Positions 1 through 37,660 of a stretch of DNA of 64,000 nt are shown piece by piece. Where the stretch lies: the NCBI GenBank assembly GCA_965237985.1, contig OZ250161.1:1771913-1835912 (forward strand), in the 5' to 3' direction. This DNA comes from Candidatus Oxydemutatoraceae bacterium. Lineage in GTDB: Bacteria; Pseudomonadota; Gammaproteobacteria; Poriferisulfidales; Oxydemutatoraceae. The notes under the pieces were generated by a model that saw only the letters and a program-made list of their open reading frames with translations, ran no database searches and was not told where the DNA came from. How positions within the stretch are numbered: the first letter of the stretch is position 1; every line of letters starts with the position of its first letter. The position numbers and the translations under genes are program-made.

Positions 1-889
1 GGCGCAAGGGGAACCGCAGATGACTGTGTTGTTGGCGGAGAACGGGAGTTTGCCTGCTGATGATCCATATTGTGGGCGATACCCGGGAGCAGAAACAACG
101 ATACGCAGGAGCAAAGTGGGGGCAGAGTCGGGGAGAGGTGGCTGTGTGCCAATAAGCTTGGCAGCGGCACCGAACTTTACAGGGGTTGCAGATGGCAAGA
201 CAGTGGGCGTGGTGGATTGGATTTTGGTGGAGATAAGGGCTTCGGACGCGACTGAGGCAGAGGAGTTTGTAGGCGACACTGTGACGGTGCAAATACCGGC
301 ATTGTTGTTGAGCAACGGTCTCGTGGTTGATGCCGAGCGATTTGCCGGGAGTAGTTCCGTATTGAGCGATGCTGACAGAACTCTATGTGCCACCGTGGGG
401 AATGGATGCGATGCTGCAGATGTTGAAGTGCCGAGTGAGGCGTTCCCCGTTGCCGTTGGTACCAATGTTCGCGTGGTTATCAGACATAGAAACCATTTGG
501 ATGTCATGTCTGCGGTGCCTGTGGTTGAAACAGACGGTGTTCGCATGTTTGACTTCACAACGGTGACAAATGTTTACACGCCATTAGCTGACATACCTGC
601 TGTTTGGAGTTATAACAGTGAATTGAGAGGTGACTTGGAGAGAATTTTGTCCCCATACCCGGATTATGCATTCTTAGTCCCTGGTGATACGAATGGAAAT
701 GGAGTAGTGGAACCTGTTGATGTTACCGGCGCGACGGGTTTTACAGGTGCCTTTGTCAGTGGAGACACAACCGGGTACAACGATGCAGATACCAGCATGA
801 ACAATGTAGTGGCACCTGATGATGTGACGGAACGCGGCTTCACGACGGCATTCGTTTCGGGAGCAGCCAGTTCACTAGTTCCGAATTAA
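1..889 (+). CDS. 3' part of a secreted/surface protein gene (5' end outside the window) with dockerin/EF-hand-like Asp-Asn-Gly motifs
   Basis: The frame is open from position 2, with no stop before the first ATG at 20, and the stop is at 887-889. It contains VPGDTNGNGVVEPVDV (a dockerin-type Ca-binding-like loop) and DWILVEIR. No specific function can be assigned. Confidence 0.5.
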   Translation, partial: AQGEPQMTVLLAENGSLPADDPYCGRYPGAETTIRRSKVGAESGRGGCVPISLAAAPNFTGVADGKTVGVVDWILVEIRASDATEAEEFVGDTVTVQIPALLLSNGLVVDAERFAGSSSVLSDADRTLCATVGNGCDAADVEVPSEAFPVAVGTNVRVVIRHRNHLDVMSAVPVVETDGVRMFDFTTVTNVYTPLADIPAVWSYNSELRGDLERILSPYPDYAFLVPGDTNGNGVVEPVDVTGATGFTGAFVSGDTTGYNDADTSMNNVVAPDDVTERGFTTAFVSGAASSLVPN

Positions 890-973
890 TATCAGGTGCC
901 ATTCGCAGAAATTTTTGAATTGGGCAGAATTGACGGTTCTGCTTGTTTCTCTTAGTCAAGAGGGAGTATACAG

Positions 974-3900
974 ATGTTTTCATTGAACTTTAGTCCACAA
1001 GGTGAAGCAGCAAAGAAGTGTTTGACTAGAGGCGGTTTGCTCGTTTTGTTCTTGGCAATGGGAAATGCCGGTGCACAGGAGTTCGATTTTAACAGAGAAA
1101 ACTTTCTGGTGCCGCCTGTGCCGATAGTGGCAACGTGTTCGGACTGTGTGGGGGAGTTATTTCTCAGAATGAGCGAGCCTGAAATCGCCGATGGCAGAGC
1201 ATCAATCGGTGTTTTGCTGAGGGCCAGCCTTTCCAGTAGTTTTACGGCAACCCCCTACTTGGGCAACTACGTATTTCATGTTGCTGTTGGCGGTGTTGGT
1301 ATAGAACTTGTTAGAACGTCTTGCAATTTTACTGTGGCGAGTGGTGTGCAGAGCACTTACAACCCGGTTCCTTTGGCTGTGGGCTCAGCGAGTCCGCTGT
1401 CACTTACGGTGAACCAAGTGGCCCCGGGTTTCGGTTTGAGTTCACCGTCGACTGATACACACTACAGGCTGAGCACGGATGGGTTTAGCCAGTTCGGTAC
1501 ATTCAGTTGTCCGATCAGCGATACGAGTGGTGTAAATGCATACATTCTGGCTCCGGTTAACGTCTATGGATTTACTGTTCAGGTGGGGGTGGGTAACCAA
1601 CAGAAATTGTTGCTGAGGGCTGATAATTCGTACCGGTACTATCCTCTTGATGGTGACGCACCATTTGTAGCTGCAACAGGTGATCCTGTTGACTCCAGTA
1701 CCGTCACAGTGAGCCTAACGAGCAATTTGGTTGGTGTGCCGTCAACTGCAAGGAACTTTACCTTTAGCCCTGGGTGTGGCGTCGCTCCCGACAGTAGCGT
1801 CGCTCCCGTCGTTCCTGAAGTGCCAATTACCACCACTGTTACAGATATAAAAATATCTTTTGGAGAATCGCAGATATACAACGATTGTGTGGTGACTTAT
1901 GACGTGGTGGTTCCAGGTAATAGCTACAGCCTCACACAACGTCTGGGGGAAACGCCCATTCCGCCTGGTGGGGATGTTGTCAGCACAGTAGTGGTGTCCC
2001 TGAATGTTGGTTCTTCGAGTCCAATACAAGTTATTGACTTGGAAGACCCAAACTTGGTGTATTCGGCTTATGCCAATGTGAGGACAACCAGCGGTGATCC
2101 TCTACCCGTTTCTGCGGCGTATAGCCTGGATGGTGAAGAAATCGACAATGCTGATATTGGCGACGAAGTTACTGTTCAATTTTCCGATCGGAACAAGGAA
2201 ATTAATTTGAACATCGCCTTTAATGCAGCGAGAGAAGCGGCCATAAGAAGCATGAGTGGCGCCAACCCGGTGCAGATTCTGACGCTTGAAGTAAGGGTTG
2301 GTGACAGTGAACCATGGAGCAAATCATACTTGGTGGTTAGTAAAACTGAGGTTGCTGCTGCTATGAATCTCTACAGAAATTTCTTGGGTACTGTAATTAC
2401 CAGCACAGAAGGAATTGTCGGCGAAGAGGTAGATGCTGGATTCTTTCTGGCTCAGCTTCTTAGCACCGGTGCTGCTGTGATTGTAGATAAAGACGTCATT
2501 CAAAACGTATTGAATGCCGCGGTTGGAGGCCTGATAAATCTTCCGGACAGTGGGTTTAGTTCCAGTATACAGAATGAAGTTTTGACTGATGCGTACAGTT
2601 TTTCTGGATCACTTGATAATCTGGGTGTCACAGAGGCGAGTTTCGTCATTGATCTCGGTTCCAGTCAATTGACGTCGCCAGCGAGACTGGCTAAGCAAAT
2701 CAGAACTGGTGTCGAGCAGTGGAGGGGGGTTGATAACGGTTCTGGTGGCAGCGTAAGTTACTCGACTAATAGATACTTGCTACCACCGTCACCGTGTCTG
2801 CCTGCAAATGCTGAATCGGGCTGGCTTGATACAGATAATGGTTATGGACTGTTGCCAGCAAGCAGCACTACTCCTATCAGGTGCATCAGGATAACCATAG
2901 CTGATAATGGTGTTTATGATGTTGACGGTGCTGATCCTGAACTTTTTGGTTTTATTTCTGACTCGATTGTAGGGGTTGCAGACAGTCCTGACATTGTGCT
3001 TGCGCATGCACCACAGGGTTGCAGCTACGAGCCAGGTTATTTTCTTGCAGGTCCCGGTGACCCGATGCCGAATCGCTCAACTTGTGTGGGTTCAGTTACG
3101 GCGCAGATGAGGAACTTCAGAGCCACCGAAAGTACGGGAGATAGCAATGGTAGAGCCGTGGTGGACATTTGGCTCGAGACGGATTTACCTTCCACCCATA
3201 GTCGTTTCCTCGGTGGCTTTGAGTTTGACATTGCAGTTGATGGGGCCAAATATGGCGGAAGAGATGGTGGCGCTCCTACGGACAGCGGCATCGATTTAAG
3301 GGATAATGTTTGTGCTTTTTCCTATGCAGAGGGCGTGCTTGGCGGGTCAATAAATATAGATACGCGCACTTTTGAACCCGTCTTGTCCTTGGCAGTTTCT
3401 GCGGGCGCGCCTGAAGGTGGTAACCAAGTGGGTCTTATGACCAACTACGTCCTAAAAAGGGATTTCGAGCACTTTGGGACGTTCACCTGTCCAATTCTAG
3501 ATCGCTCCCTTGATAGGGGTTATGTTTTCGGTGCTAATAAAGTCTTTGAGTTTCGTGTGCATGATGAGAAGACCAACAGCTCTGGTGACTTTGACCCTCT
3601 GGTGCTGAGGGCTGATAATTCGTACCGGTACTATCCTCTTGATGGTGACGCACCATTTGTAGCTGCAACAGGTGATCCTGTTGACTCCAGTACCGTCACA
3701 GTGAGTCTAACGAGCAATTTGGTTGGTGTGCCGTCAACTGCAAGGAACTTTACCTTTAGCAGTGGTATCAATGGGTGTGGCGTCGCTCCCGTCGTTCCTG
3801 AAGTGCCAATTACCACCACTGTTACAGATATAAAAATATCTTTTGGAGAATCGCAGATAGACAACGATTGTGTGGTGACTTATGACGTGGTGGTTCCAGG

Positions 3901-6900
3901 TAATAGCTACAGCCTCACACAACGTCTGGGGGAAACGCCCATTCCGCCTGGTGGGGATGTTGTCAGCACAGTAGTGGTGTCCCTGAATGTTGGTTCGGAT
4001 CCAATACAAGTTATTGACTTGGAAGACCCAAACTTGGTGTATTCGGCTTATGCCAATGTGAGGACAACCAGCGGTGATCCTCTATCCGTTTCTGCGGCGT
4101 ATAGCCTGGATGGTGAAAAAATCGACAATGCTGATATTGGCGACGAAACTGTTCAATTTTCCGATCGGAACAAGGAAATTAATTTGAACCTCGCCTTTAA
4201 TGCAGCGAGAGAAGCGGCCATAAGAAGCATGAGTGGCGCCAACCCGGTGCAGATTCTGACGCTTGAAGTAAGGGTTGGTGACAGTGAACCATGGAGCAAA
4301 TCATACTTGGTGGTTAGTAAAACTGAGGTTGCTGCTGCTATGAATCTCTACAGAAATTTCTTGGGTACTGTAATTACCAGCACAGAAGGAATTGTCGGCG
4401 AAGAGGTAGATGCTGGATTCTTTCTGGCTCAGCTTCTTAGCACCGGTGCTGCTGTGATTGTAGATAAAGACGTCATTCAAAACGTATTGAATGCCGCGGT
4501 TGGAGGCCTGATAAATCTTCCGGACAGTGGGTTTAGTTCCAGTATACAGAATGAAGTTTTGACTGATGCGTACAGTTTTTCTGGATCACTTGATAATCTG
4601 GGTGTCACAGAGGCGAGTTTCGTCATTGATCTCGGTTCCAGTCAATTGACGTCGCCAGCGAGACTGGCTAAGCAAATCAGAACTGGTGTCGAGCAGTGGA
4701 GGGGGGTTGATAACGGTTCTGGTGGCAGCGTAAGTTACTCGACTAATAGATACTTGCTACCACCGTCACCGTGTCTGCCTGCAAATGCTGAATCGGGCTG
4801 GCTTGATACAGATAATGGTTATGGACTGTTGCCAGCAAGCAGCACTACTCCTATCAGGTGCATCAGGATAACCATAGCTGATAATGGTGTTTATGATGTT
4901 GACGGTGCTGATCCTGAACTTTTTGGTTTTATTTCTGACTCGATTGTAGGGGTTGCAGACAGTCCTGACATTGTGCTTGCGCATGCACCACAGGGTTGCA
5001 GCTACGAGCCAGGTTATTTTCTTGCAGGTCCCGGTGACCCGATGCCGAATCGCTCAACTTGTGTGGGTTCAGTTACGGCGCAGATGAGGAACTTCAGAGC
5101 CACCGATCAAAGTACGGAAGATAGCATGGGTAGAGCCGTGGTGGACATTTGGCTCAAGACGGATTTACCTTCCACCCATAGTCGTTTCCTCGGTGACTTT
5201 GAGTTTGACATTGCAGTTGATGGGGCCAAATATGGCGGAGGAGATGGTGGCGCTCCTACGGACAGCGGCATCGATTTAAGGGATAATAATGTTTGTGCTT
5301 TTTCCTATGCAGAGGGCGTGCTTGGCGGGTCAATAGATATAGCTACGCGCACTTTTGATCCCGTCTTGTCCTTGGCAGTTTCTGCGCGCGCGCCTGGAGA
5401 TGGTAACCGAGTGGGTCCTATGACCAACTACGTCCTAAAAAGGGATTTCGAGCGCTTTGGGACGTTCACCTGTCCAATTCTAGATCGCTCCCTTGATAGG
5501 GGTTATGTTTTCGGTGCTAATAAAGTCTTTGAGTTTCGTGTGCATGATGAGAAGACCAACAGCGTTGGTGACTTTGACCCTCTGGTGCTGAGGGCTGATA
5601 ATTCGTACCGGTACTATCCTCTTGATGGTGACGCACCATTTGTAGCTGCAACAGGTGATCCTGTTGACTCCAGTACCGTCACAGTGAGTCTAACGAGCAA
5701 TTTGGTTGGTGTGCCGTCAACTGCAAGGAACTTTACCTTTAGCCCTGGGTGTGGCGTCGCTCCCGACAGTAGCGTCGCTCCCGTCGTTCCTGATGTGCCA
5801 ATTACCCTCCTTGATACAGAAATACCTATAGTTTTTGCAAAATCGCAGATAGACAACGATTGTGTGGTGACTTATGACGTGGTGGTTCCAGGTAATAGCT
5901 ACAGCCTCACACAACGTCTGGGGGAAACGCCCATTCCGCCTGGTGGGGATGTTGTCAGCACAGTAGTGGTGTCCCTGAATGTTGGTTCGGATCCAATACA
6001 AGTTGTTGACTTGGAAGACCCAAACTTGGTGTATTCGGCTTATGCCAATGTGAGGACAACCAGCGGTGATCCTCTACCCGTTTCTGCGGCGTATAGCCTG
6101 GATGGTGAAGAAATCGACAATGCTGATATTGGCGACGAAGTTACTGTTCAATTTTCCGATCGGAACAAGGAAATTAATTTGAACATCGCCTTTAATGCAG
6201 CGAGAGAAGCGGCCATAAGAAGCATGAGTGGCGCCAACCCGGTGCAGATTCTGACGCTTGAAGTAAGGGTTGGTGACAGTGAACCATGGAGCAAATCATA
6301 CTTGGTGGTTAGTAAAACTGAGGTTGCTGCTGCTATGAATCTCTACAGAAATTTCTTGGGTACTGTAATTACCAGCACAGAAGGAATTGTCGGCGAAGAG
6401 GTAGATGCTGGATTCTTTCTGGCTCAGCTTCTTAGCACCGGTGCTGCTGTGATTGTAGATAAAGACGTCATTCAAAACGTATTGAATGCCGCGGTTGGAG
6501 GCCTGATAAATCTTCCGGACAGTGGGTTTAGTTCCAGTATACAGAATGAAGTTTTGACTGATGCGTACAGTTTTTCTGGATCACTTGATAATCTGGGTGT
6601 CACAGAGGCGAGTTTCGTCATTGATCTCGGTTCCAGTCAATTGACGTCGCCAGCGAGACTGGCTAAGCAAATCAGAACTGGTGTCGAGCAGTGGAGGGGG
6701 GTTGATAACGGTTCTGGTGGCAGCGTAAGTTACTCGACTAATAGATACTTGCTACCACCGTCACCGTGTCTGCCTGCAAATGCTGAATCGGGCTGGCTTG
6801 ATACAGATAATGGTTATGGACTGTTGCCAGCAAGCAGCACTACTCCTATCAGGTGCATCAGGATAACCATAGCTGATAATGGTGTTTATGATGTTGACGG

Positions 6901-9181
6901 TGCTGATCCTGAACTTTTTGGTTTTATTTCTGACTCGATTGTAGGGGTTGCAGACAGTCCTGACATTGTGCTTGCGCATGCACCACAGGGTTGCAGCTAC
7001 GAGCCAGGTTATTTTCTTGCAGGTCCCGGTGACCCGATGCCGAATCGCTCAACTTGTGTGGGTTCAGTTACGGCGCAGATGAGGAACTTCAGAGCCACCG
7101 ATCAAAGTACGGAAGATAGCATGGGTAGAGCCGTGGTGGACATTTGGCTCAAGACGGATTTACCTTCCACCCATAGTCGTTTCCTCGGTGACTTTGAGTT
7201 TGACATTGCAGTTGATGGGGCCAAATATGGCGGAGGAGATGGTGGCGCTCCTACGGACAGCGGCATCGATTTAAGGGATAATAATGTTTGTGCTTTTTCC
7301 TATGCAGAGGGCGTGCTTGGCGGGTCAATAGATATAGCTACGCGCACTTTTGATCCCGTCTTGTCCTTGGCAGTTTCTGCGCGCGCGCCTGGAGATGGTA
7401 ACCGAGTGGGTCCTATGACCAACTACGTCCTAAAAAGGGATTTCGAGCGCTTTGGGACGTTCACCTGTCCAATTCTAGATCGCTCCCTTGATAGGGGTTA
7501 TGTTTTCGGTGCTAATAAAGTCTTTGAGTTTCGTGTGCATGATGAGAAGACCAACAGCGTTGGTGACTTTGACCCTCTGGTGCTGAGGGCTGATAATTCG
7601 TACCGGTACTATCCTCTTGATGGTGACGCACCATTTGTAGCTGCAACAGGTGATCCTGTTGACTCCAGTACCGTCACAGTGAGTCTAACGAGCAATTTGG
7701 TTGGTGTGCCGTCAACTGCAAGGAACTTTACCTTTAGCCCTGGGTGTGGCGTCGCTCCCGACAGTAGCGTCGCTCCCGTCGTTCCTGATGTGCCAATTAC
7801 CACCACTGTTACAGATATAAAAATATCTTTTGGAGAATCGCAGATAGACAACGATTGTGTGGTGACTTATGACGTGGTGGTTCCAGGTAATAGCTACAGC
7901 CTCACACAACGTCTGGGGGAAACGCCCATTCCGCCTGGTGGGGATGTTGTCAGCACAGTAGTGGTGTCCCTGAATGTTGGTTCTTCGAGTCCAATACAAG
8001 TTATTGACTTGGAAGACCCAAACTTGGTGTATTCGGCTTATGCCAATGTGAGGACAACCAGCAGTGAGCGTCTATCCATTTTTGCGGCGTATAGCCTGGA
8101 TGGTGAAAAAATCGGCGGTGCTTCTCTCGGCGACGAAGTTACTGTTCAATTTTCCGATCAAAACAAGAAAATTGATTTGACCGAAGTCTTTATTGCAGCG
8201 AGAGAAGCGGCCATAAGAAGCATGAGTGGCGCCAACCCGGTGCAGATTCTGACGCTTGAAGTAAGGGTTGGTGACAGTGAACTATGGAGCAAATCATACT
8301 TGGTGGTTAGTAAAACTGCGGTTGCTTATGGCATGGCTGCCTACAGAGATCTCTTGAACACTGTAATTACCAGCACAGAAGGAATTGTCGGCGAAGAGGT
8401 AGATGCTGGATTCTTTCTGGCTGAACTTCTTAGTCGTAGCACCGGTGCTGCTGTGATTGTAGGTCAAGAGGTCATTCAAGGCGAATTGAATGACGCGGTT
8501 GGACGCCTGATAAATCTTCCGGAGAGTGGGTTTAGTAGTACGCAGAATAAAGTTTTGATAACTGATGCGTACACTTTTTCTGGATCACTTGATAATCTGG
8601 GTGTCACAGAGGCGAGTTTCGTCATTGATCTCGGAGACAGGCAATTGACGTCGCCAACGAGACTGGCTAAGCAAATCAGAACTGGTGGGGAGTACGAGCA
8701 GTGGAGAGGGGTTGATAACGGTTCTGGTGGCAGCGTAAGTTACTCGACTGTGGTCAACTTGCTAGGTGCTGGAGCGCAACCTCCCTGTCCCGAGGCTGCT
8801 GATGCTGTCGGCTGGATGAATACAGATAATGGAGTGTTACCGGCAGCTAGTCCTCTTGCTGATCAAATCAGGTGCATCAGGATAACCATAGCTGATGATG
8901 GTGTTTATGATGTTGACGGTGCTGATCTTGGACAACCTGGACTTTCTGGTTTTATTTCTGACCCGATTGCAGGGGTTGAAGACAGTCCTGACATTGTGCT
9001 TGCGCACGCTGGTGGCGGCGGTGGTAGCGATGGTTGGATTGTCGCACTCGCAGTTTTGGGAGGCTTGCTCTTTGCTGGCTCTGCTGGACTGTGGATGATC
9101 TTTGCTCTGCTTGCGATACTCGCCTTGTCCCTGTGGAGGAGGCGAAGCGAAGTTGTTGCTCATCATCGCAGTGAGTTCTAA
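974..9181 (+). CDS. Giant cell-surface repeat protein (2,735 aa) with an N-terminal signal peptide and a C-terminal Gly-rich/hydrophobic/Arg-rich sorting-signal-like tail
   Basis: Uninterrupted 8.2-kb ORF. An SD-like GAGGGAG (960-966) sits 7 nt upstream of ATG 974. The N-terminus KKCLTRGGLLVLFLAMGNAGA/QE looks like a Sec signal. It holds four roughly 660-aa near-identical units. The tail reads LAHAGGGGGSDGWIVALAVLGGLLFAGSAGLWMIFALLAILALSLWRRRS. A hairpin plus T-run terminator follows. Confidence 0.85.
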   Translation: MFSLNFSPQGEAAKKCLTRGGLLVLFLAMGNAGAQEFDFNRENFLVPPVPIVATCSDCVGELFLRMSEPEIADGRASIGVLLRASLSSSFTATPYLGNYVFHVAVGGVGIELVRTSCNFTVASGVQSTYNPVPLAVGSASPLSLTVNQVAPGFGLSSPSTDTHYRLSTDGFSQFGTFSCPISDTSGVNAYILAPVNVYGFTVQVGVGNQQKLLLRADNSYRYYPLDGDAPFVAATGDPVDSSTVTVSLTSNLVGVPSTARNFTFSPGCGVAPDSSVAPVVPEVPITTTVTDIKISFGESQIYNDCVVTYDVVVPGNSYSLTQRLGETPIPPGGDVVSTVVVSLNVGSSSPIQVIDLEDPNLVYSAYANVRTTSGDPLPVSAAYSLDGEEIDNADIGDEVTVQFSDRNKEINLNIAFNAAREAAIRSMSGANPVQILTLEVRVGDSEPWSKSYLVVSKTEVAAAMNLYRNFLGTVITSTEGIVGEEVDAGFFLAQLLSTGAAVIVDKDVIQNVLNAAVGGLINLPDSGFSSSIQNEVLTDAYSFSGSLDNLGVTEASFVIDLGSSQLTSPARLAKQIRTGVEQWRGVDNGSGGSVSYSTNRYLLPPSPCLPANAESGWLDTDNGYGLLPASSTTPIRCIRITIADNGVYDVDGADPELFGFISDSIVGVADSPDIVLAHAPQGCSYEPGYFLAGPGDPMPNRSTCVGSVTAQMRNFRATESTGDSNGRAVVDIWLETDLPSTHSRFLGGFEFDIAVDGAKYGGRDGGAPTDSGIDLRDNVCAFSYAEGVLGGSINIDTRTFEPVLSLAVSAGAPEGGNQVGLMTNYVLKRDFEHFGTFTCPILDRSLDRGYVFGANKVFEFRVHDEKTNSSGDFDPLVLRADNSYRYYPLDGDAPFVAATGDPVDSSTVTVSLTSNLVGVPSTARNFTFSSGINGCGVAPVVPEVPITTTVTDIKISFGESQIDNDCVVTYDVVVPGNSYSLTQRLGETPIPPGGDVVSTVVVSLNVGSDPIQVIDLEDPNLVYSAYANVRTTSGDPLSVSAAYSLDGEKIDNADIGDETVQFSDRNKEINLNLAFNAAREAAIRSMSGANPVQILTLEVRVGDSEPWSKSYLVVSKTEVAAAMNLYRNFLGTVITSTEGIVGEEVDAGFFLAQLLSTGAAVIVDKDVIQNVLNAAVGGLINLPDSGFSSSIQNEVLTDAYSFSGSLDNLGVTEASFVIDLGSSQLTSPARLAKQIRTGVEQWRGVDNGSGGSVSYSTNRYLLPPSPCLPANAESGWLDTDNGYGLLPASSTTPIRCIRITIADNGVYDVDGADPELFGFISDSIVGVADSPDIVLAHAPQGCSYEPGYFLAGPGDPMPNRSTCVGSVTAQMRNFRATDQSTEDSMGRAVVDIWLKTDLPSTHSRFLGDFEFDIAVDGAKYGGGDGGAPTDSGIDLRDNNVCAFSYAEGVLGGSIDIATRTFDPVLSLAVSARAPGDGNRVGPMTNYVLKRDFERFGTFTCPILDRSLDRGYVFGANKVFEFRVHDEKTNSVGDFDPLVLRADNSYRYYPLDGDAPFVAATGDPVDSSTVTVSLTSNLVGVPSTARNFTFSPGCGVAPDSSVAPVVPDVPITLLDTEIPIVFAKSQIDNDCVVTYDVVVPGNSYSLTQRLGETPIPPGGDVVSTVVVSLNVGSDPIQVVDLEDPNLVYSAYANVRTTSGDPLPVSAAYSLDGEEIDNADIGDEVTVQFSDRNKEINLNIAFNAAREAAIRSMSGANPVQILTLEVRVGDSEPWSKSYLVVSKTEVAAAMNLYRNFLGTVITSTEGIVGEEVDAGFFLAQLLSTGAAVIVDKDVIQNVLNAAVGGLINLPDSGFSSSIQNEVLTDAYSFSGSLDNLGVTEASFVIDLGSSQLTSPARLAKQIRTGVEQWRGVDNGSGGSVSYSTNRYLLPPSPCLPANAESGWLDTDNGYGLLPASSTTPIRCIRITIADNGVYDVDGADPELFGFISDSIVGVADSPDIVLAHAPQGCSYEPGYFLAGPGDPMPNRSTCVGSVTAQMRNFRATDQSTEDSMGRAVVDIWLKTDLPSTHSRFLGDFEFDIAVDGAKYGGGDGGAPTDSGIDLRDNNVCAFSYAEGVLGGSIDIATRTFDPVLSLAVSARAPGDGNRVGPMTNYVLKRDFERFGTFTCPILDRSLDRGYVFGANKVFEFRVHDEKTNSVGDFDPLVLRADNSYRYYPLDGDAPFVAATGDPVDSSTVTVSLTSNLVGVPSTARNFTFSPGCGVAPDSSVAPVVPDVPITTTVTDIKISFGESQIDNDCVVTYDVVVPGNSYSLTQRLGETPIPPGGDVVSTVVVSLNVGSSSPIQVIDLEDPNLVYSAYANVRTTSSERLSIFAAYSLDGEKIGGASLGDEVTVQFSDQNKKIDLTEVFIAAREAAIRSMSGANPVQILTLEVRVGDSELWSKSYLVVSKTAVAYGMAAYRDLLNTVITSTEGIVGEEVDAGFFLAELLSRSTGAAVIVGQEVIQGELNDAVGRLINLPESGFSSTQNKVLITDAYTFSGSLDNLGVTEASFVIDLGDRQLTSPTRLAKQIRTGGEYEQWRGVDNGSGGSVSYSTVVNLLGAGAQPPCPEAADAVGWMNTDNGVLPAASPLADQIRCIRITIADDGVYDVDGADLGQPGLSGFISDPIAGVEDSPDIVLAHAGGGGGSDGWIVALAVLGGLLFAGSAGLWMIFALLAILALSLWRRRSEVVAHHRSEF
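1611..9000 (+). repeat. Four in-frame tandem copies (about 1.99 kb each) inside the giant gene
   Basis: TGCTGAGGGCTGATAATTCGTACCGG recurs at 1611, 3603, 5586 and 7581. The periods are 1992, 1983 and 1995 nt, all multiples of 3. Antisense track ORFs 2789..3007, 4766..4984 and 6761..6979 translate identically (72 aa), so those 219-nt stretches are identical in three copies. The fourth copy diverges after about 8050. Confidence 0.95.
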
Positions 9182-9203
9182 GTAAACCAGCTTCATGAAT
9201 GAA

Positions 9204-9234
9204 AAGGCGGGCGCTTCGGTGCCCGCCTTTTTTT
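9204..9234 (+). terminator. Rho-independent terminator after the giant gene
   Basis: AAGGCGGGC-gcttcggt-GCCCGCCTT followed by a T-run, 23 nt after the stop. A second hairpin, ACGGCTGT-ttcaga-ACAGCCGT, lies at about 9241-9262. Confidence 0.8.
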
Positions 9235-9459
9235 GTCTTGACGGCTGTTTCAGAACAGCCGTAATCGAAAGTCTGCTTCAGATGATCGATTGAAGCCACT
9301 TTTGCCTGCTGTCACAGTTATGGAACCGTGAAGCTTTTTTTTAACAGATGCCTGATGTCAAAAAAGTTATGCTGAGAGGCTGGGGCTGGTTCGTGTTGTG
9401 GTGTTGAAGCGGTAATGGGTATGCGGGTTTGTTTTTAACAACCATGCGGTGGTTGCCAA

Positions 9460-12115: not shown

Positions 12116-13339
12116 TGTAGAAGTTTAGACCCAATCTGACACATCACTCAATCAAGCTGAGCGCAGCGAAGCTTGATTTAGTGAGAGTTACCCGTTTAGA
12201 TGTCATTGCAATATTAATATCCAAACAAAGAGGTAGCTCTCATGATCCATACTAACGATAAAGTCATTAAATATAAAGTCGGCCTACTCAATCTGGCTGA
12301 AGAACTCGGAAACGTCTCAAAAGCCTGCAAGATGATGGGCTTATCCAGAGATACTTTCTATCGATACAAAGCCGCTGCTGATGAAGGTGGCATTGAAGCA
12401 CTTTTTGATCAAAACAGGCGTATCGCGAACCTCAAAAATAGAGTTGATCCTGCGATTGAATCCATCGTCGTTGAACACGCTCTGGAAGAACCTGCCCATG
12501 GGCAGACCCGAACCAGCAATGAGCTACGCAAAATGGGGACATTTGTTTCGCCGACGGGCGTACGAAGTATTTGGTTACGCCATAACCTGGCTTGCCTTAA
12601 AGATCGACTCAAAGCACTATCCGATAAAGTGGCCACTGAAGGCCTGATTCTTACTGAGCCTCAAGTCGCTGCCATGGAACGCAAACAAGATGACGATCAG
12701 GCCTGTGGTGAGATAGAAACAGCCCACCCTGGCTATTTGGGCTCGCAAGACACTCACTATGTGGGTACATTCAAGGGTATTGGCCGAGTCTATCAGCAGA
12801 CGTTTATTGATACTTACAGTAAAGTCGCTCATGCCAAGCTCTACACCACCAAAACGCCGATTACCGCCGCTGATATGCTCAATGATCGTGTGTTGCCGTT
12901 CTATGAGGAACAAGCACTTCCCATGCTGCGGATTCTCACCGACCGTGGTACAGAATATTGTGGTCGAGCTGACCAACATGATTACCAGCTCTACCTGGCT
13001 TTGAATGATATTGAGCACACCAAAACCAAAGTCAGGTCACCGCAAACCAATGGCATTTGTGAACGCTTCCACAAGACCCTTCTCAATGAGTTTTACCAAG
13101 TGACCTTGCGTAAGAAAATCTATCAATCGATAGAAGAGTTACAAATTGATCTTGACAAATGGCTCATCAAATACAATACTCAACGAACTCACCAAGGCAA
13201 AATGTGCTGTGGGAGAACGCCGATGGAAACTCTCATCGACGGCAAATCGATCTGGAAGGAAAAGTTTTTGAACTAAACTTAACCTGACAGTCGGTTGCTG
13301 ATAAACGGGTAACTGTCAGATCAAGTCTAAACTTCTACA
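12116..13339 (+). mobile_element. Intact IS481-family insertion sequence (1,224 bp) with a 7-bp target-site duplication
   Basis: IRL TGTAGAAGTTTAGAC (12116-12130) is the exact reverse complement of IRR GTCTAAACTTCTACA (13325-13339). Similarity extends to about 26 bp with 3 mismatches. The direct repeat ACTGATG flanks both ends (12109-12115 and 13340-13346). It carries a single transposase ORF. Confidence 0.85.
12242..13276 (+). CDS. IS481-family DDE transposase (HTH plus rve integrase core)
   Basis: 344 aa. N-terminal HTH region LGNVSKACKMMGLSRDTFYRYK. C-terminal integrase-core signature KTKVRSPQTNGICERFHKTLLNEF. A single unframeshifted ORF between TGT...ACA inverted repeats. Confidence 0.9.
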   Translation: MIHTNDKVIKYKVGLLNLAEELGNVSKACKMMGLSRDTFYRYKAAADEGGIEALFDQNRRIANLKNRVDPAIESIVVEHALEEPAHGQTRTSNELRKMGTFVSPTGVRSIWLRHNLACLKDRLKALSDKVATEGLILTEPQVAAMERKQDDDQACGEIETAHPGYLGSQDTHYVGTFKGIGRVYQQTFIDTYSKVAHAKLYTTKTPITAADMLNDRVLPFYEEQALPMLRILTDRGTEYCGRADQHDYQLYLALNDIEHTKTKVRSPQTNGICERFHKTLLNEFYQVTLRKKIYQSIEELQIDLDKWLIKYNTQRTHQGKMCCGRTPMETLIDGKSIWKEKFLN

Positions 13340-13994
13340 ACTGATGAGACAAACTGCAGCATCTTGACGTGCAGCTGGCGACACTTTTGCCTGCCGCAGT
13401 TCAGCAACGTTCAGTCACTGTCGGCTCCCCACCGTCGAGATTGCCATTTGCTTTGCCTGGCAGGCTTTTTGCCGTGCTGGTCACACTTGTAGCTTTATGC
13501 CTGGGGAGTTCAAGTCTTGACATCAGGCCGGTCGCGCGTTTTTTTCGCGTTTTTTGTTTACCAAGGCCTTATCCGCCTTGCCAGCGCTACTTTGTAAAGC
13601 TACGCGCCTGCCGTTCGTTGAGATGCACATTGTGTTCCACCTCTGCCAGGGGGGGCAGATGTTCTTGGTGGATGGTCGCAATCCTCCGTAGCAGGTTTGT
13701 TCCCCGCCGCACAAGAGCAAGCTCTTGGATCTTGGTTGACTTTTGTGCCACTTGCTTTTTCTTGGCCAAAGCTTCCAGCGGGGAAGTCGTGTGATGAAAA
13801 AGAGAACACTCACTATCATGCGGGTTGTGCCTAGACATGGAGTCTACATGCAGCGGTGAAAAGTAAGCTAGACTCAAACGCCGTTTAAGCGCTGTGGCAA
13901 TTTCTGTTTTATGAATGCTTTGCAGGCTGCTTGAGCGTCGCGGTAGAGGTTCACCTCTGTCTGCGGAATTTGGCTGTTTTTGGAGCGGTGGAGA

Positions 13995-16900
13995 ATGTCC
14001 TCGATTAGAAAATTTTCATCTGTAAAGATGTTTTCAATCTGTGGGTTGCAGTTATTCTGCTCCGCGATTGCCCTGATGTGCTTTCCTCCGACCGTCTTCG
14101 GGCAAGATGTGGTTACGATCGTTACTGGGCTGGCAAGCGGTACGACATTATTCAATATCACAATGGACACTGGTGATATTCTGGGGACTGGTGCTGTGTC
14201 GGATTCCTTTATTCCCGTCGCGGTAACCAAGATTGTTCCGACTGTTGACTGTCCTACCGTTAGAGATGATTGTCTGCTGTTAAGTGATGATATTAGAAAA
14301 TTCTTTCCTGATAAGGGAAAAGATCTTAAGGAAACAAGGAACTTTCTGAATCAATTGAGCGTGCGGTCCGCTGATTATCTGCCTGTTACTGCAACGCTTG
14401 CTTTAACGGTCACCTATTATTCTAGACTTGAACGTGGTTTACCAGTGGAAATTACGGCTACCACCAGATTAAGTTTAGTTCTGGTGGAGGACCCGCCACC
14501 TGTGTTGAAGGATGAAAATGCCGTAAGCACCATTTTTGTTTCTAATTCGCCCTTCATGACCGCGGTTTTTGGAACAATAACCGTTAGGGATGTGCAATCT
14601 ACTGAATTTGTCGTTGAGGTAGTCAGTAGTATACGAATAACGCATATTTGTGGGGGTGGCAGTGTGGATGGCCGCACAGACTGCCTCCTTTTTGAATCTG
14701 AACCGACAATCGCGGAATTTTTAGGAGGTTCCAGTCAGCAGAGATCAGTTGCTCTTGCCCAGGGTTTTCTGCGCAGCATCCCGATGAAAATTTCCGGGGT
14801 CCCACCAATTCGGGCGACGGTGACGGTGTCACTGGAGTCGCGACTCAACGACAGTTCAATACCGCGGAAATCCACCCCGCTTACCTACGCCCTGGATTTT
14901 GATATCTCCGCTCTGGTGCCGCAGTTGAGTGATAAGTCCAATCTTAAAAAAGAGGGCTCCACAGGCGGCTTTATGCCTTTCAGTTCGCTGAGAGTTACGG
15001 ATGTTGGGGGCGAGGAGGAGGTTTTTACCAGCGTAAGGCTTACACAGGATTGTGGGGAGCTGGGAGAAAATTGCCTGCGGCTGAGTCCTCAACCGAGTAG
15101 CTTTGGAAGTTCTGTATTCGGCGATGACCCCCAAGATTTTTTGCGGAGCGTGATCGTGGTCCCGATAGGCGGCAGTTCCTTGTCTGCAACCGTAACTGTG
15201 ACGGTTAGTTCTATGTTACGTGGCTTAGCGCGAGTTTCCAATGAACTGGTTTACCGCCTGACTTTCGTCAGCAGGGCACCATTCCTGTCTGATAGTCCCA
15301 GCGAAAAAAGTGGCGATGTGTTGGGGTTCAGCCCATTCAGCTCCATCACTGTGACAGCAAGAGAAGCGGACACGATTACCAGTGTGGTGGTTGGGGCTTC
15401 CGGATGTTCCAGAGACCGTTCTACCTGCCTGGACATCATTGGCGTGGATCCGATAGCAGGAACAGCGATGCAGGTTCAGAGCTCCCTGCGGGATCTGGTG
15501 GTGAAATGGAGTGCGGACTATCGGGAGACGCGTGAGGCGACGGTGACGGTTTCCCTGGAAAGCAGTGTGAGGAACGCCTTTGGAGAGTTCGTGTCCCGGA
15601 AGTCAACCCCCCTGACGTATCGTCTGACTTTCACTGTTTCAGATCCACTGCCGCAGTTGAGTGATGATAAGTCCAATCTTAAAAAAGAGGGCTCCACAGG
15701 CGGCTTTATGCCTTTCAGTTCGCTGAGAGTTACGGATGTTAGGGGCGATGAGGAGGTTTTTACCAGCGTAAGGCTTATACAGGATTGTGGGGAGCTGGGA
15801 GAAAATTGTCTGCGGCTGAGTCCTCAACCGAGTAGCTTTGGAAGTCCTGTATTTGGCGATGACCCCCAAGATTTTTTGCGGAGCGTGATCGTGGGCACCA
15901 CAGACGGCCGTTCCTTGTCTGCAACCGTAACTGTGACGGTTAGTTCTATGTTACGTGGCTTAGCGCGAGTTTCCAATAAACTGGTTTACCGCCTGACTTT
16001 CGTCAGCAGGGCACCATTCCTGTCTGATAGTCCCAGCGAAAAAAGTGGCGATGTGTTGGGGTTCAGCCCATTCAGTTCCATCACTGTGACAGCAAGAGAA
16101 GCGGACACGATTACCAGTGTGGTGGTTGGGGCTTCCGGATGTTCCAGAGACCGTTCTACCTGCCTGGACATCATTGGCGTGGATCCGATAGCAGGAACAG
16201 CGATGCAGGTTCAGAGCTCCCTGCGGGATCTGGTGGTGAAATGGAGTGCGGACTATCGGGAGACGCGTGAGGCGACGGTGACGGTTTCCCTGGAAAGCAG
16301 TGTGAGGAACGCCTTTGGAGAGTTCGTGTCCCGGAAGTCAACCCCCCTGACGTATCGTCTGACTTTCACTGTTTCAGATCCACTGCCGCAGTTGAGTGAT
16401 GATAAGTCCAATCTTAAAAAAGAGGGCTCCACAGGCGGCTTTATGCCTTTCAGTTCGCTGAGAGTTACGGATGTTAGGGGCGATGAGGAGGTTTTTACCA
16501 GCGTAAGGCTTATACAGGATTGTGGGGAGCTGGGAGAAAATTGTCTGCGGCTGAGTCCTCAACCGAGTAGCTTTGGAAGTCCTGTATTTGGCGATGACCC
16601 CCAAGATTTTTTGCGGAGCGTGATCGTGGGCACCACAGACGGCCGTTCCTTGTCTGCAACCGTAACTGTGACGGTTAGTTCTATGTTACGTGGCTTAGCG
16701 CGAGTTTCCAATAAACTGGTTTACCGCCTGACTTTCGTCAGCAGGGCACCATTCCTGTCTGATAGTCCCAGCGAAAAAAGTGGCGATGTGTTGGGGTTCA
16801 GCCCATTCAGTTCCATCACTGTGACAGCAAGAGAAGCGGACACGATTACCAGTGTGGTGGTTGGGTCTTCCGGATGTTCCAGAGACCGTTCTACCTGCCT

Positions 16901-19900
16901 GGACATCATTGGCGTGGATCCGATAGCAGGAACAGCGATGCAGGTTCAGAGCTCCCTGCGGGATCTGGTGGTGAAATGGAGTGCGAACTATCGGAATCCG
17001 CGTGAGGCGACGGTGACGGTTTCCCTGGAAAGCAGTGTGAGGAACGCCTTTGGAGAGCTCGTGTCCCGGAAGTCAACCCCCCTGACGTATTGTCTGTCTT
17101 TCACTGTTTCAGATCCACTGCCGCAGTTGAGTGATGATAAGTCCAATCTTAAAAAAGAGGGCTCCACAGGCGGCTTTACGCCTTTCAGTTCGCTGAGAGT
17201 TACGGATGTTAGGGGCGATGAGGAGGTTTTTACCAGCGTAAGGCTTATACAGGATTGTGGGGAGCTGGGAGAAAATTGCCTGCGGCTGAGTCCTGAACCG
17301 AGTAGCTTTGGAAGTCCTGCATTTGGCGATGACCCCGACCCCCAAGATTTTTTGCGGAGCGTGATCGTGGTCCCGATAGGCGGCCGTTCCTTGTCTGCAA
17401 CCGTAACTGTGACGGTTAGTTCTATGTTACGTGGCTTAGCGCGAGTTTCCAATGAACTGGTTTACCGCCTGACTTTCGTCAGCAGGGCACCATTCCTGTC
17501 TGATAGTCCCAGCGAAAAAAGTGGCGATGTGTTGGGGTTCAGCCCATTCAGCTCCATCACTGTGACAGCAAGAGAAGCGGACACGATTACCAGTGTGGTG
17601 GTTGGGGCTTCCGGATGTTCCAGAGACCGTTCTACCTGCCTGGACATCATTGGCGTGGATCCGATAGCAGGAACAGCGATGCAGGTTCAGAGCTCCCTGC
17701 GGGATCTGGTGGTGAAATGGAGTGCGGACTATCGGGAGACGCGTGAGGCGACGGTGACGGTTTCCCTGGAAAGCAGTGTGAGGAACGCCTTTGGAGAGCT
17801 CTTGTCCCGGAAGTCAACCCCCCTGACGTATCGTCTGACTTTCACTGTTTCAGATCCACTGCCGCAGTTGAGTGATGATAAGTCCAATCTTAAAAAAGAG
17901 GGCTCCACAGGCGGCTTTATGCCTTTCAGTTCGCTGAGAGTTACGGATGTTGGGGGCGAGGAGGAGGTTTTTACCAGCGTAAGGCTTATACAGGATTGTG
18001 GGGATCTGGGAGAAAATTGCCTGCGGCTGAGTCCTGAACCGAGTAGCTTTGGAAGTCCTGCATTTGGCGATGACCCCGACCCCCAAGATTTTTTGCGGAG
18101 CATGACCGTGGGCACCACAGACGACCGTTCCTTGTCTGCAACCGTAACTGTGACGGTTAGTTCTATGTTACGTGGCTTAGCGCGAGTTTCCAATAAACTG
18201 GTTTACCGCCTGACTTTCGTCAGCAGGGCACCATTCCTGTCTGATAGTTCCAGCGAAAAAAGTGGCGATGTGTTGGGGTTCAGCCCATTCAGCTCCGTCA
18301 CTGTGACAGCAAGAGAAGCGGACACGATTACCAGTGTGGTGGTTGGGGCTTCCGGATGTTCCAGAGACCGTTCTACCTGCCTGGACATCATTGGCGTGGA
18401 TCCGATAGCAGGAACAGCGATGCAGGTTCAGAGCTCCCTGCGGGATCTGGTGGTGAAATGGAGTGCGAACTATCGGAATCCGCGTGAGGCGACGGTGACG
18501 GTTTCCCTGGAAAGCAGTGTGAGGACCGCCTTTGGAGAGCTCGTGTCCCGGAAGTCAACCCCCCTGACGTATCGTCTGACTTTCACTGTTTCAGACTTGC
18601 CGCCAATGTTGGATGATGCCTCAGGTCTTGATAAAACGGGTTTTGTCGGCGGCTTCGAGCCTTTCGCTGAAATAACATTAAGTGATGATGACAGCAGGGG
18701 AGGGACGGAGTCAATTACCGGCATTCGAATCGCCGTAGACTGCGTTGGCGGCGCTACGACCTGCACAGCTTATGTGGGCGACGGGCCGGGTGATTTCGCT
18801 GGAGGAACTCTTTCGGAAGCTCAGAACTTTCTGCGAAAACTACAGGTTCGTTCCCGGTTCGCGTCTTATTCGGCAAGGTTGTCTGTAACAGTCCGTACGG
18901 TGCTACGGGAACTGCCGCGTCAGTCTAATACGCTTGTTTATACTTTGACATTCCCCACACTTGGCCGTCTTCGTGATGACCGACCCAAGAGCAGGTTTGT
19001 CGTCCCGGAATTTGCTGTTGACCTGGGGGTTAACCCTTATGACTTGGATGAGGTGCGCAATGCAGTTAAAGAACATTGCGGTGGTGATTATTTCGAAGAT
19101 TCTGATGGTGATGGCGTGCCAAATAATGTTGAAGCACAGTTGGGCACAGACTGTCGGAATGACGATCCAGACAATGTAGCGGGTGGCGAGGAGAGACCTT
19201 TGGTGACTGTTGATACTTCCGAGGCTCAGATGTTGGACAAATTGCCCTTTACAGGCAGTCTGTCGGAACTTGAAATTCAATGCCGGGGTTGTGTGGAGAT
19301 TTTCTTCCTTGAAAAACAGGCTGTCTGCACTTCCGCATCGGCTGACTCCGTACTCGGGAACGGCAGCATTGCATTCCCGGGCGTAAACCAGTCATCTTGT
19401 TACCAGGCGGGCTATTACTCAAGCTCTGCAACTGCTGCTCCTTCCCCCTTGACAGGAACGATTTTCCCTGTGCCAACCTGGTCGGAGCTATATGTGTTGG
19501 GCATAGACAAGTATGGGAACTGGTCTGTCAGCAATAGTGGGGCACTGGATACGAAGGTGGTGTACACGTTAGCCGTTTTGAGTCTCGGTCCGGATCTATA
19601 TGCCCTTGGGGATATGGCAAACGTCACGGTGGAATTTCGCGGGCGATGGACTCAGGCATCTCCGGACTTGTCGCTTCCTGCGGTTGCCCTGGCTTTTACT
19701 CTTGACGTCAACGGCACGAAATTCCCGGGATCATTTCCCAATCCCGTGCACAGGGGTACGATGACCATTCCTGTTGATGTGTCCGATATTGATGCAGGAA
19801 GCATGCTGATTGTGAGCCTGGATGACTCCAATTTTTTTGCCGTGGGAAGAAGTGTTCTTACTATCCTAAAAGGAGAAGCGCCGCCATTCATAACGATTGG

Positions 19901-36198: not shown

Positions 36199-37660
36199 AG
36201 CAGCACAGAGGTAAGTGGTTCCGCAGCGAAACTGATTGTTGTTCGCAGTAAGGAACTGATTGCGGGGGCGAGCTTTGATGTTGTTCTCATGAGCAATGTT
36301 CTAGTCGCTGGTGAGTGGGTAAGGGTTCGGATTGTGGAAGCCTCGCCACCGGTTATTGTTGGTGGCAATGTTCAGAATCGGTTGGTAATGGAGAGTGTGG
36401 ATTCCAGCTTGTTGACTTTTATCGCTACTGATATTGAACCCGGTGATGAGATGGACCCGGAGTGGGAGTTCCTTGTCGCCGGTGAGCCGGTGCTGGCGGT
36501 TGGAGAAGTTGCACGGTTTGAGGGTTTGACAACAGGTGCCAGAATCACAGTTCGGTTGACGCGGTCAGCTGCTAATGGTGATTTTGGTAGTTTTGTGTTG
36601 CGGGTTTCAGATTCTGATGGAGCGATTGTCCTGGTGACTGTAAACATTGTTCCGGGGTGTGTCTTGGTGGCGGTCAAGATCTGATGACCAGGCAGACCGG
36701 CACTGGCAGATTCGTCAGTCCCTATCGGATCAGGACGCTGTGCCAGTTGCAGGACATGAGATCAAGCCCGAGTGTCCACTATGTATTAGCTACCGAGATT
36801 GATGCACGCTGGGCAAGTACGTTTAACGATGAAGCTGGTTTTGAACCCATTGCACTCGGTACAGAGAATGGATTTTCGGGTTCTTTTGTGAACAGTGCAA
36901 AGCATGTGATTACTGGCTTGACTATAGATCGTCCCAGCACGGATAACGTTGGACTGTTTTCCCATTTGGCAAGTGGGGAGACGATACGTGGCGTGATACT
37001 GCAGGACTCGCGCACGACCGGACGCAACAAGGTTGGTGCTTTAGTCGGTGCCGGCTCCGGAGTGATTGAGGATAGTCGTTCTATCGGTTCTGTTTACGGG
37101 GAAGATGGTGTTGGTGGTCTGGTTGGATACAGCAGTGGCAGGATTGGCAACAGCTATGCGACTGGTTCAGTAACGGGGTCTGATGGTGTTGGTGGTCTGG
37201 TTGGATATAGCAGTGGCAGGATTGGCAACAGCTATGCGACTGGTTCAGTAACGGGGTCTGATGGTGTTGGTGGCTTGGTGGGAATTCTCATTGGCAGCTC
37301 GACCATCAGTAACAGTTACTCTTTAAGCACGGTGACAGGAACTAACAACAGCAGCAATTCGGTGGCCTGGTGGGAAGCAGCGCTAATGGTGCGAGCATTG
37401 TCGCCAGCTACTATACGGGGCCGAACAATGCTTTGGGTGCCCAGCGCAATTTTTTGCAGTTACGCTGTCCGACAGCGGCTGGCGCAACCTGTCCGCAGGA
37501 CGATCCGGCCACCAGCTACGAGAATTGGGACCCGCGTGTTTGGGGCTTTGGCAGTGCTGATGATTTTCCGAAATTGCGAGTTTCTTTCATCCCGCGTGTG
37601 CGGGAGCAATGGCGTGTCAGAGTATATCTTGGTGGTGCAATGAGGTGGGAAGATCAGTAG
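36199..37660 (+). pseudogene. 5'-truncated, twice-frameshifted GLUG-motif adhesin fragment
   Basis: Three consecutive frames: 36199-36684, 36657-37643 and 37370-37660. It contains GTGRFVSPYRIRTLCQLQDM...YVLATEIDA...GFEPIA..FSGSF and repeated VGGLVGYSSGRIGNSYATGSVTGSDG (GLUG motif). After NSSN the sense continues in another frame as GGLVGSSANGASIVASYYTG...YENWDPRVWGFGSADDFPKL. The frame opens only at 36199, with no start or signal peptide. Confidence 0.65.
37107..37262 (+). repeat. 2 x 78-bp near-identical tandem repeat encoding GLUG units
   Basis: GGTGTTGGTGGTCTGGTTGGATA(C/T)AGCAGTGGCAGGATTGGCAACAGCTATGCGACTGGTTCAGTAACGGGGTCTGAT occurs at 37107 and 37185. Confidence 0.9.

Follow-up and report, generated by a model that had tools for sequence, protein, structure and literature searches.

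A giant gene with four in-frame copies of a complete ectodomain and a strain-variable number of units in a gammaproteobacterium

The stretch of 64,000 nucleotides (nt) analysed here (the window; contig OZ250161.1, positions 1,771,913 to 1,835,912, of assembly GCA_965237985.1 of a Candidatus Oxydemutatoraceae bacterium) harbours a giant gene, an open reading frame (ORF) at 974..9181 on the forward strand with an ATG start. It encodes a protein of 2,735 amino acids (aa) that consists of a signal peptide, four in-frame units of 659-679 aa each, and a C-terminal tail with a glycine run, a hydrophobic stretch and an RRR cluster. Each unit corresponds to a complete mature ectodomain, and strains of essentially one species carry one, three or four such units at this locus. 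The best overall explanation is that of an exported, probably C-terminally anchored and diversifying surface protein, variable in length, in which the whole ectodomain is the repeat; we consider this explanation probable. A location at the cell surface is suggested by the signal peptide and the tail.

Repeat architecture and alleles at the locus

A repeat search found four direct copies with start-to-start spacings of 1992, 1983 and 1995 nt or, depending on the register, 1977, 1995 and 1998 nt, all of them multiples of three. The array was missed by Tandem Repeats Finder, which handles periods up to 500 nt. The LAHA motif, ending at nt 3010, 4987, 6982 and 9010, was used to set the boundaries of units 1 to 4 (U1 to U4; Table 1). 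A preliminary description, made from the letters alone, had read the gene as a signal peptide, four times about 660 aa and an anchor, with periods of 1992, 1983 and 1995 nt, long nucleotide-identical stretches and three antisense ORFs with identical translations. All of this was borne out: exact repeats extend to 1,616 nt, and the antisense ORFs (2789..3007, 4766..4984 and 6761..6979) encode the same 72 aa each. As candidate genes these three ORFs were rejected; they are by-products of the repeat.

Every unit opens with an N-module (its first ~200 aa), which is followed by a middle region and a pre-anchor C-module, together designated M-C and beginning at LRADNSYRYYPLDGD. The N-module has the form N1 in U1 and N2 in U2-U4, and M-C occurs as haplotype A or B, giving the array formula N1-MC(A) / N2-MC(A) / N2-MC(A) / N2-MC(B)-tail. 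The internal junctions read LAHA followed by PQGCSYEPG, and the pre-anchor module runs into the tail in U4 only, as described before. It was also confirmed that the unit edges coincide with those of the mature protein and its domains. Units start after the predicted cleavage site NAGA/QE, and N2 aligns to N1 from the first mature residues (NAGA/QEFDF versus LAHA/PQGCSYEP). Units end at LAHA, the point at which the Gly run of the tail sets in, both in the last unit and in single-unit genes. An AlphaFold2 model of the C-module, based on an alignment of 17 sequences (predicted local distance difference test, pLDDT, 73.9; predicted template-modelling score, pTM, 0.72), is a compact beta-sandwich with its last strands reaching LAHA. 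The model of a whole unit was poor (pLDDT 48); it predicts beta-rich N and immunoglobulin (Ig)-like parts, and its first ~23 residues form a low-confidence disordered linker. The linker between units varies, PQ in the window and PQPQ in the three-unit allele described below.

The preliminary description had proposed a search for a stand-alone homologue of roughly 700 aa that has this signal peptide and this tail. Two were found in a search with U3, P0001 (742 aa) and P0002 (760 aa), which share the signal peptide, N1, M-C and an identical tail; a second homologue search, with a family profile, yielded only these two again. P0001 is encoded on contig L001 (ENA ERZ25766962) at the orthologous locus, preceded by the same ORF and followed by amgK and murU. 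Window positions 1-3009 correspond to L001 9028-12045 and positions 7578-12100 to L001 10635-15158, the two sequences being collinear apart from 5.97 kb of additional units in the window. An exhaustive HMMER search added P0003 (2,116 aa), which has three units with N2 modules and is encoded on contig L004 from the same metagenome sample as L001, again with amgK and murU downstream. The signal peptide is conserved in the single-unit and three-unit homologues, and the protein sequence of the tail is identical in P0001, P0002 and P0003 (non-synonymous divergence, dN, of 0).

The locus thus holds one unit in L001, three in L004 and four in the window, with flanking genes that are ~99% identical. 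Among the three, amgK differs at 10-11 of 1,011 nt and the ectodomain by 4-12%. Copy-number variation between strains, which had been considered probable beforehand, is therefore real at this one locus. At least three variants of the locus are present in a single metagenome sample, and, judging from their names and from the resolved three-unit array, L001 and L004 appear to be alternative, strain-specific contigs produced by a long-read metagenome assembly. With the one- and three-unit alleles from one sample, length variation of a predicted surface protein has been caught in a natural population. The gene offers a clean natural case in which the unit of an in-frame tandem array is not a small domain but a complete mature protein.

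Table 1 Features of the giant gene (nt positions in the window unless marked aa)
Feature	Position	Strand	Remarks
Shine-Dalgarno-like GAGGGAG	960..966	+	8 nt upstream of the ATG at 974; read from the sequence
Predicted Sec-type signal peptide, aa 1-34	974..1075	+	KK n-region, LLVLFLAMG h-region, predicted cleavage site NAGA/QE
U1	aa 1-679		includes the 34-aa signal peptide
N1, N-terminal form of the N-module, beta-rich	1076..1615	+
Unit 1 middle region and pre-anchor C-module	1616..3010	+	haplotype A, ending in LAHA
U2	aa 680-1338
Unit 2	3011..4987	+	PQG linker; N2 3011-3607; M-C 3608-4987, haplotype A
U3	aa 1339-2003
Unit 3	4988..6982	+	N2 4988-5590; M-C 5591-6982, haplotype A
Pre-anchor C-module of unit 3, modelled beta-sandwich	6455..6982	+	other copies ~2483-3010, 4460-4987, 8453-9010
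U4	aa 2004-2679
Unit 4	6983..9010	+	N2 6983-7585, identical to that of unit 3; M-C 7586-9010, haplotype B
Tail	aa 2680-2735		56 aa
Sorting-signal-like tail	9011..9181	+	GGGGGSD, extra hydrophobic segment WIVALAVLGGLLFAG, SAGLW, hydrophobic helix, RRR, SEVVAHHRSEF, stop
Intrinsic-terminator-like hairpin	9201-9232	+	14 pairs (8 G-C), then a T-run; 20 nt past the stop codon
Longest exact repeat, 1,616 nt	4191-5806 = 6186-7801	+	spans the unit 2/3 and unit 3/4 junctions
Exact repeat, 1,096 nt	2034-3129 = 6006-7101
Exact repeat, 916 nt	2214-3129 = 4191-5106

Origin, exchange and selection of the units

The two forms of the N-module have very different histories. N1 shares 89-93% identity with the N1 of the allelic genes and 55-65% with the N-modules found in distant members of the family. 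N2 shows 28-41% identity to the latter and forms a long separate branch. As had been noted, the region behind the signal peptide is a diverged version of the inter-unit N-module: N1 and N2 share 36-38% identity and the motifs listed for the module, and synonymous sites between them are saturated. L004 has N2 as well, so the multi-unit form that contains it predates the divergence of the strains. A one-step, recent amplification of the single-unit gene of today is excluded, N2 being old, divergent and saturated relative to N1. The earlier idea of a head-to-tail amplification of a whole protein therefore stands as far as the whole ectodomain is the unit, but not as a simple recent amplification of the present single-unit gene. 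The N2-type internal unit must have arisen by an old duplication or by fusion with a neighbouring paralogue; a contig from another sample (L005) carries family genes in tandem on one strand, so that adjacent genes may plausibly have fused. Homogenisation has since acted on the M-C parts, whereas the sequences of N1 and N2 differ too much for recombination. In this species the single-unit alleles may just as well be ancestral as secondary collapses, and recombination between the first and the last M-C would give exactly the single-unit form.

Within the array, the N2 modules of U3 and U4 are the same and that of U2 differs at 18 codons. The M-C parts of U1, U2 and U3 are almost identical, with zero differences over the last ~900 nt. 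U2 is marked by specific indels (an SGIN insertion, a 6-codon deletion and a 1-codon deletion), and U3 by the patch TLLDTEIPIVFAK, which recurs in unit 2 of the three-unit allele of L004. Haplotype B of U4 departs from units 1-3 at ~11-13% of nt, and its identity to units 1-2 of the three-unit allele is 95-96%; over nt 1001-1400 of M-C the U4 haplotype equals that of units 1 and 2 of L004. P0001 and P0002 are mosaics of A and B variants. Units are homogenised within arrays, and haplotype blocks are shuffled between arrays. The low divergence had been attributed to recent amplification or ongoing gene conversion; it results from this homogenisation and exchange, and youth alone does not explain it. 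The outermost segments of the array are the most divergent, as is expected if unequal exchange homogenises the array interior.

Counting synonymous and non-synonymous differences between the units, as had been suggested, revealed that near-identical units differ almost only non-synonymously. U2 and U3 are separated by 37.5 non-synonymous and 0.5 synonymous differences (Fisher p = 5.5e-5), and the N2 modules of window U2, window U3 and L004 unit 2 by 16-18 non-synonymous versus 0-1 synonymous differences per pair. For amgK the ratio of non-synonymous to synonymous divergence (dN/dS) is 0.2-0.5. The ectodomain thus appears at least unconstrained and in parts positively selected, with a frozen sorting tail. 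A frozen tail combined with an ectodomain dN/dS of at least 1 makes it likely that the protein is an interface with the host, phage or neighbouring cells.

The following scheme is proposed. The ancestral form would be a single unit composed of a signal peptide, an N-module, an Ig-like and mixed alpha/beta middle, a beta-sandwich pre-anchor module and a tail with Gly run, transmembrane (TM) helix and arginines; distant relatives, of 600-660 aa, are built in this way. The N2-type internal unit would go back to an old duplication or to the fusion of adjacent paralogues. The complete mature ectodomain, from behind the signal peptidase site up to the Gly run, would have been joined head to tail and in frame through a short P-Q linker. 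The resulting protein would have the form SP-[N1-M-C]-[N2-M-C]x3-tail, in which SP is the signal peptide. RecA-type unequal crossing-over and gene conversion between the 1.4-kb M-C regions would expand, contract and homogenise the array, and homologous recombination between the 1.4-2-kb repeats would also swap haplotype cassettes with other alleles, with one-, three- and four-unit alleles among ~99%-identical strains as the outcome. After export by the Sec system the protein would be retained by its C-terminal helix and probably processed by a dedicated intramembrane protease, so as to display one to four complete ectodomains in series. Diversifying selection would act on the exposed parts, with the tail strictly conserved. 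The locus would then act as a length- and antigen-variable surface adhesin or shield protein, in which more units would mean a longer reach and a higher valency, and a collapse to one unit would always be possible.

A number of observations weigh against this scheme or parts of it. The copy number of four rests on the assembly, and an exact repeat of 1.6 kb is hard to assemble without long reads. Unit comparisons other than those given above yielded dN/dS values of 1.1-1.5, not significantly above 1, and recombination between old alleles can inflate pairwise non-synonymous counts. A search of 1.84 billion representatives found no stand-alone protein carrying an N2-type module, from which N2 could have come. 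The tail falls short of all curated models of C-terminal sorting signals (CTERM) and has an unusually long hydrophobic stretch as well as 11 residues behind RRR, so that its processing and anchoring are putative. A scan for enzymes covered 41 sequences of the 54 ORFs of at least 150 aa in the window, many of which are overlapping antisense ORFs, and no rhombosortase, rhomboid or other sorting enzyme was found among them. Finally, no functional domain was recognised and structural matches were not significant, so that 'adhesin' is a guess based on how the protein is built. For a unit, sequence searches of Pfam, NCBIfam and PDB yielded no significant domain. RibLong came no closer than E = 0.04, in 2 of 11 family members, and neither Rib nor another known repeat domain was found. 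Foldseek searches with the whole-unit model returned nothing significant, the matches being generic tandem Ig-like proteins with a template-modelling (TM) score below 0.3. Those with the C-module model gave no significant PDB neighbour, and the best matches were jelly rolls of the discoidin/CBM32 type (E = 0.008, TM score of at most 0.37). The latter provide a weak hint of a lectin-like fold. A role as adhesin, lectin or shield is possible.

The assembly is the main remaining risk: the true gene might have one unit, or another number, and the four-unit array might have been built from mis-joined reads of co-existing strain variants. Exact repeats of 0.9-1.6 kb within the array, the strain mixture in a sample with at least three locus variants, and the absence of the exact 2,735-aa product from other records are in line with such an artefact. 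However, each unit carries private markers (the indels of U2, the patch of U3 and haplotype B of U4), all unit junctions are in frame, and the independent contig L004 resolves a three-unit array with the N2 type of junction, which is beyond a short-read assembler. Contig names of the form ctgN_18x_l also suggest a long-read metagenome assembler. We therefore regard an artefact as quite improbable. Targeted hypermutation, for instance by a diversity-generating retroelement, would likewise produce clustered and almost exclusively non-synonymous differences between near-identical units, in place of selection on recombining alleles. The substitutions run in every direction (G>A, A>G, G>C and T>C, among others) and are not limited to template adenines, variant patches recur in units of other strains, pointing to exchange of pre-existing haplotypes, and a reverse transcriptase was not seen among the 41 scanned sequences. 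Mutagenesis of the retroelement type was rejected, as the substitutions are not adenine-specific, and hypermutation as such is hardly credible.

Another explanation concerns the direction of change. The gene might be an ordinary, ancient multi-domain repeat protein, multi-unit from the start, with the single-unit genes as deletion derivatives and without any amplification of a whole protein. Recombination of U1 with the last unit would indeed yield the form SP-N1-M-C-tail of P0001 and P0002, N2 is older than the strain split, and in a distant relative, P0004 (1,281 aa), C-modules are internally repeated as well. Against this, all other distant relatives with both ends preserved are single units of 604-640 aa, N1 is far closer to the distant N-modules (55-65%) than N2 is (28-41%), and the phase of the repeat matches the limits of the mature protein. 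An ancient repeat is thus unlikely; it would bear on the direction of change within the species and would leave the architecture and the copy-number variation unaffected.

Neighbouring genes and the wider family

The family is tiny, with 20 representatives (E <= 0.001) among 1.84 billion protein clusters. No members were found in JGI metagenomes with the family profile or with junction DNA, and among GTDB genomes there was a single distant match, in a metagenome-assembled genome of Candidatus Oxydemutatoraceae (Gammaproteobacteria), with 40% identity in the C-module. The distant members with both ends (P0005, P0007, P0008 and P0009) are the single units of 604-640 aa mentioned above and carry a shorter version of the tail; P0004 repeats the C-module region only. 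Immediately upstream of the giant gene lies an ORF of 289 aa (20..889, forward strand; 319 aa in L001), homologous to the C-terminal half of P0006-type proteins (657 aa), whose N-terminal half consists of an N-module and an Ig-like part as in gene 974..9181. The pair of a P0006-like gene followed by an anchored family gene is kept in the distant relative L005 (3-1979). By eye, dockerin-like D-x-N/D-G-N-G motifs can be seen in the upstream ORF. The giant gene has a putative terminator of its own (Table 1), and searches against Rfam gave no match in window 1-22000.

A second giant gene is located at 13980..21017 (forward strand), of 2,345 aa by the longest ORF (P0011, 2,340 aa). It contains at least five in-frame copies of a unit of 735/741 nt (245/247 aa), 96-100% identical, at ~14930-18400, and ends in a pre-anchor module and a LAHA-G-run-TM-RRR tail like gene 974..9181. 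L001 seems to have fewer copies of this unit, with three window copies mapping to one L001 segment. It is notable that a genome of ~2 Mb spends more than 15 kb on two such giant genes. Loci of this kind also carry a practical warning, as they are where metagenome assemblies collapse or split into strain-specific contigs.

Between the two giant genes, a non-coding element of ~250 nt downstream of murU (11852-12102) is present in a single copy and has no Rfam match. It is tandemly repeated six times in L001 (15162-16685) and about nine times in L004 (9568-11699). An ORF of 344 aa (12242..13276, forward strand), by reading of the sequence a putative IS481-type DDE transposase, occupies the place of this tandem array in the related strains, and the transposase-like insertion may have replaced or truncated the array. 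In L002, a more divergent single-unit contig (2601-3467), similarity to the window breaks off within amgK, after ~485 nt (window 9944), and the downstream genes are different (reprolysin-like, GMC oxidoreductase); either the locus is rearranged or the contig is chimeric. On L001, just upstream of the locus and outside the window, a toxin-like gene of the SpvB/TcdB-midN/RHS (YD-shell) type encodes 2,157 aa (1927-8400). Further downstream in the window, an ORF of 328 aa (36657..37643, forward strand) contains a GLUG motif (PF07581), which typically occurs in large proteins of the surface or adhesin-like kind. For the rest, the surroundings consist of ordinary housekeeping genes (mrdA, rodA, mltB, rlpA, dacA, mutL, aroB/K).

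The tail and the repeat in comparison with known systems

Sorting signals share a general tripartite design (PMC3237569, PMC6219818), and the tail of the giant protein fits it, GGGGGSD...SAGLWMIFALLAILALSLW-RRR comprising a Gly/Ser-rich motif, a TM helix and a basic cluster. The same three elements define GlyGly-CTERM, with 0-5 residues after the cluster of basic residues (PMC3237569). Like the GlyGly-CTERM proteins processed by rhombosortase, such as VesB of Vibrio cholerae (PMC3237569, PMC6219818), the giant protein combines an N-terminal signal peptide with a tripartite C-terminus. Its tail is also common to otherwise unrelated paralogues of one genome, as the second giant gene illustrates. 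Unlike GlyGly-CTERM, it has an additional hydrophobic segment, placed after the Gly run and ahead of the GSAG motif and absent from shorter-tailed relatives, and SEVVAHHRSEF follows RRR where 0-5 residues are the rule. The cut-off of the GlyGly-CTERM model TIGR03501 (15.5 bits) was not reached by the window tail (7.4 bits) or by those of relatives (7.8-9.5 bits), and two further profile scans gave no match to this model. The family consensus at the end of the tail is RRR(S/R)xVxVRSEL, and the VxVRSEL/F extension after the Arg cluster is conserved across the family. The tail (9011-9178) seems to be internally duplicated, with S-D-G-W and a hydrophobic segment followed by S-A-G-L-W, a hydrophobic segment and RRR; shorter-tailed relatives have the second element only.

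The best-scoring known CTERM model was MYXO-CTERM (TIGR03901), against which the window tail scored 13.3-15.8 bits, under the cut-off of 20. The isolated tail of one relative, P0013, scored 22.1 bits, and 16.8 bits within the full protein. The MYXO-CTERM signature includes an invariant cysteine and is processed by myxosortase (PMC11980579). The stretch from LAHA to the hydrophobic helix contains no such cysteine in the window tail and in most relatives, and the host belongs to the Gammaproteobacteria rather than to the Myxococcota. Another likeness is to choice-of-anchor U (NF041766), with which the family shares a D-x-G-x-YD-x-DG...G-x-ISDP motif directly ahead of the sorting signal. This motif lies directly N-terminal to the tail in unit 4, in the second giant gene and in all single-unit relatives, whereas three of the four copies here are internal. 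The whole protein scored 34.3 bits against a cut-off of 32 with no single stretch significant, and a single unit or a single C-module alone gave no match; the cut-off is passed only because four weak copies are summed. The C-terminus of the paralogue (13980..21017) scored 19.5 bits and relatives 12.6-17.4, with about half of the 92-position profile matched.

A tail that resembles a sorting signal and yet fits no curated model could point to an unrecognised pair of sorting enzyme and substrate. The locus may define both a new C-terminal sorting system and a mechanism of variation by whole-ectodomain repeats, although we hold this joint proposal only tentatively and think it somewhat doubtful. 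The sorting system may be characterised by the signature LAHA, Gly run, optional extra helix, GSAGxW, TM helix, RRR and VxVRSEL, with a dedicated beta-sandwich pre-anchor domain ahead of it, and may be confined, as it appears, to a rare lineage of small-genome gammaproteobacteria, maybe sponge-associated. In the variation part, recombination may alter valency and length (one to at least four units) and reshuffle old haplotype cassettes under diversifying selection driven by a host or by phages.

The family is uncharacterised, without Pfam or PDB match; the mode of variation itself is known from other repeat proteins. In Gram-positive cocci, proteins of the alpha C/Rib family, Bap, Esp and Aap/SasG have a signal peptide, near-identical in-frame repeats and a tripartite C-terminal sorting signal. 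Homologous recombination makes their number of repeats vary from strain to strain, concerted evolution keeps the repeats identical, and the repeat unit is one small domain of 80-130 aa. The giant protein shares with this class of copy-number-variable tandem-repeat surface proteins the near-identical in-frame repeats between a signal peptide and an anchor signal, and a repeat number that differs at the same locus between close strains. Unlike in the coccal proteins, however, its unit of ~660 aa (2 kb) is an entire multi-domain mature protein including the pre-anchor domain, and its host is Gram-negative.

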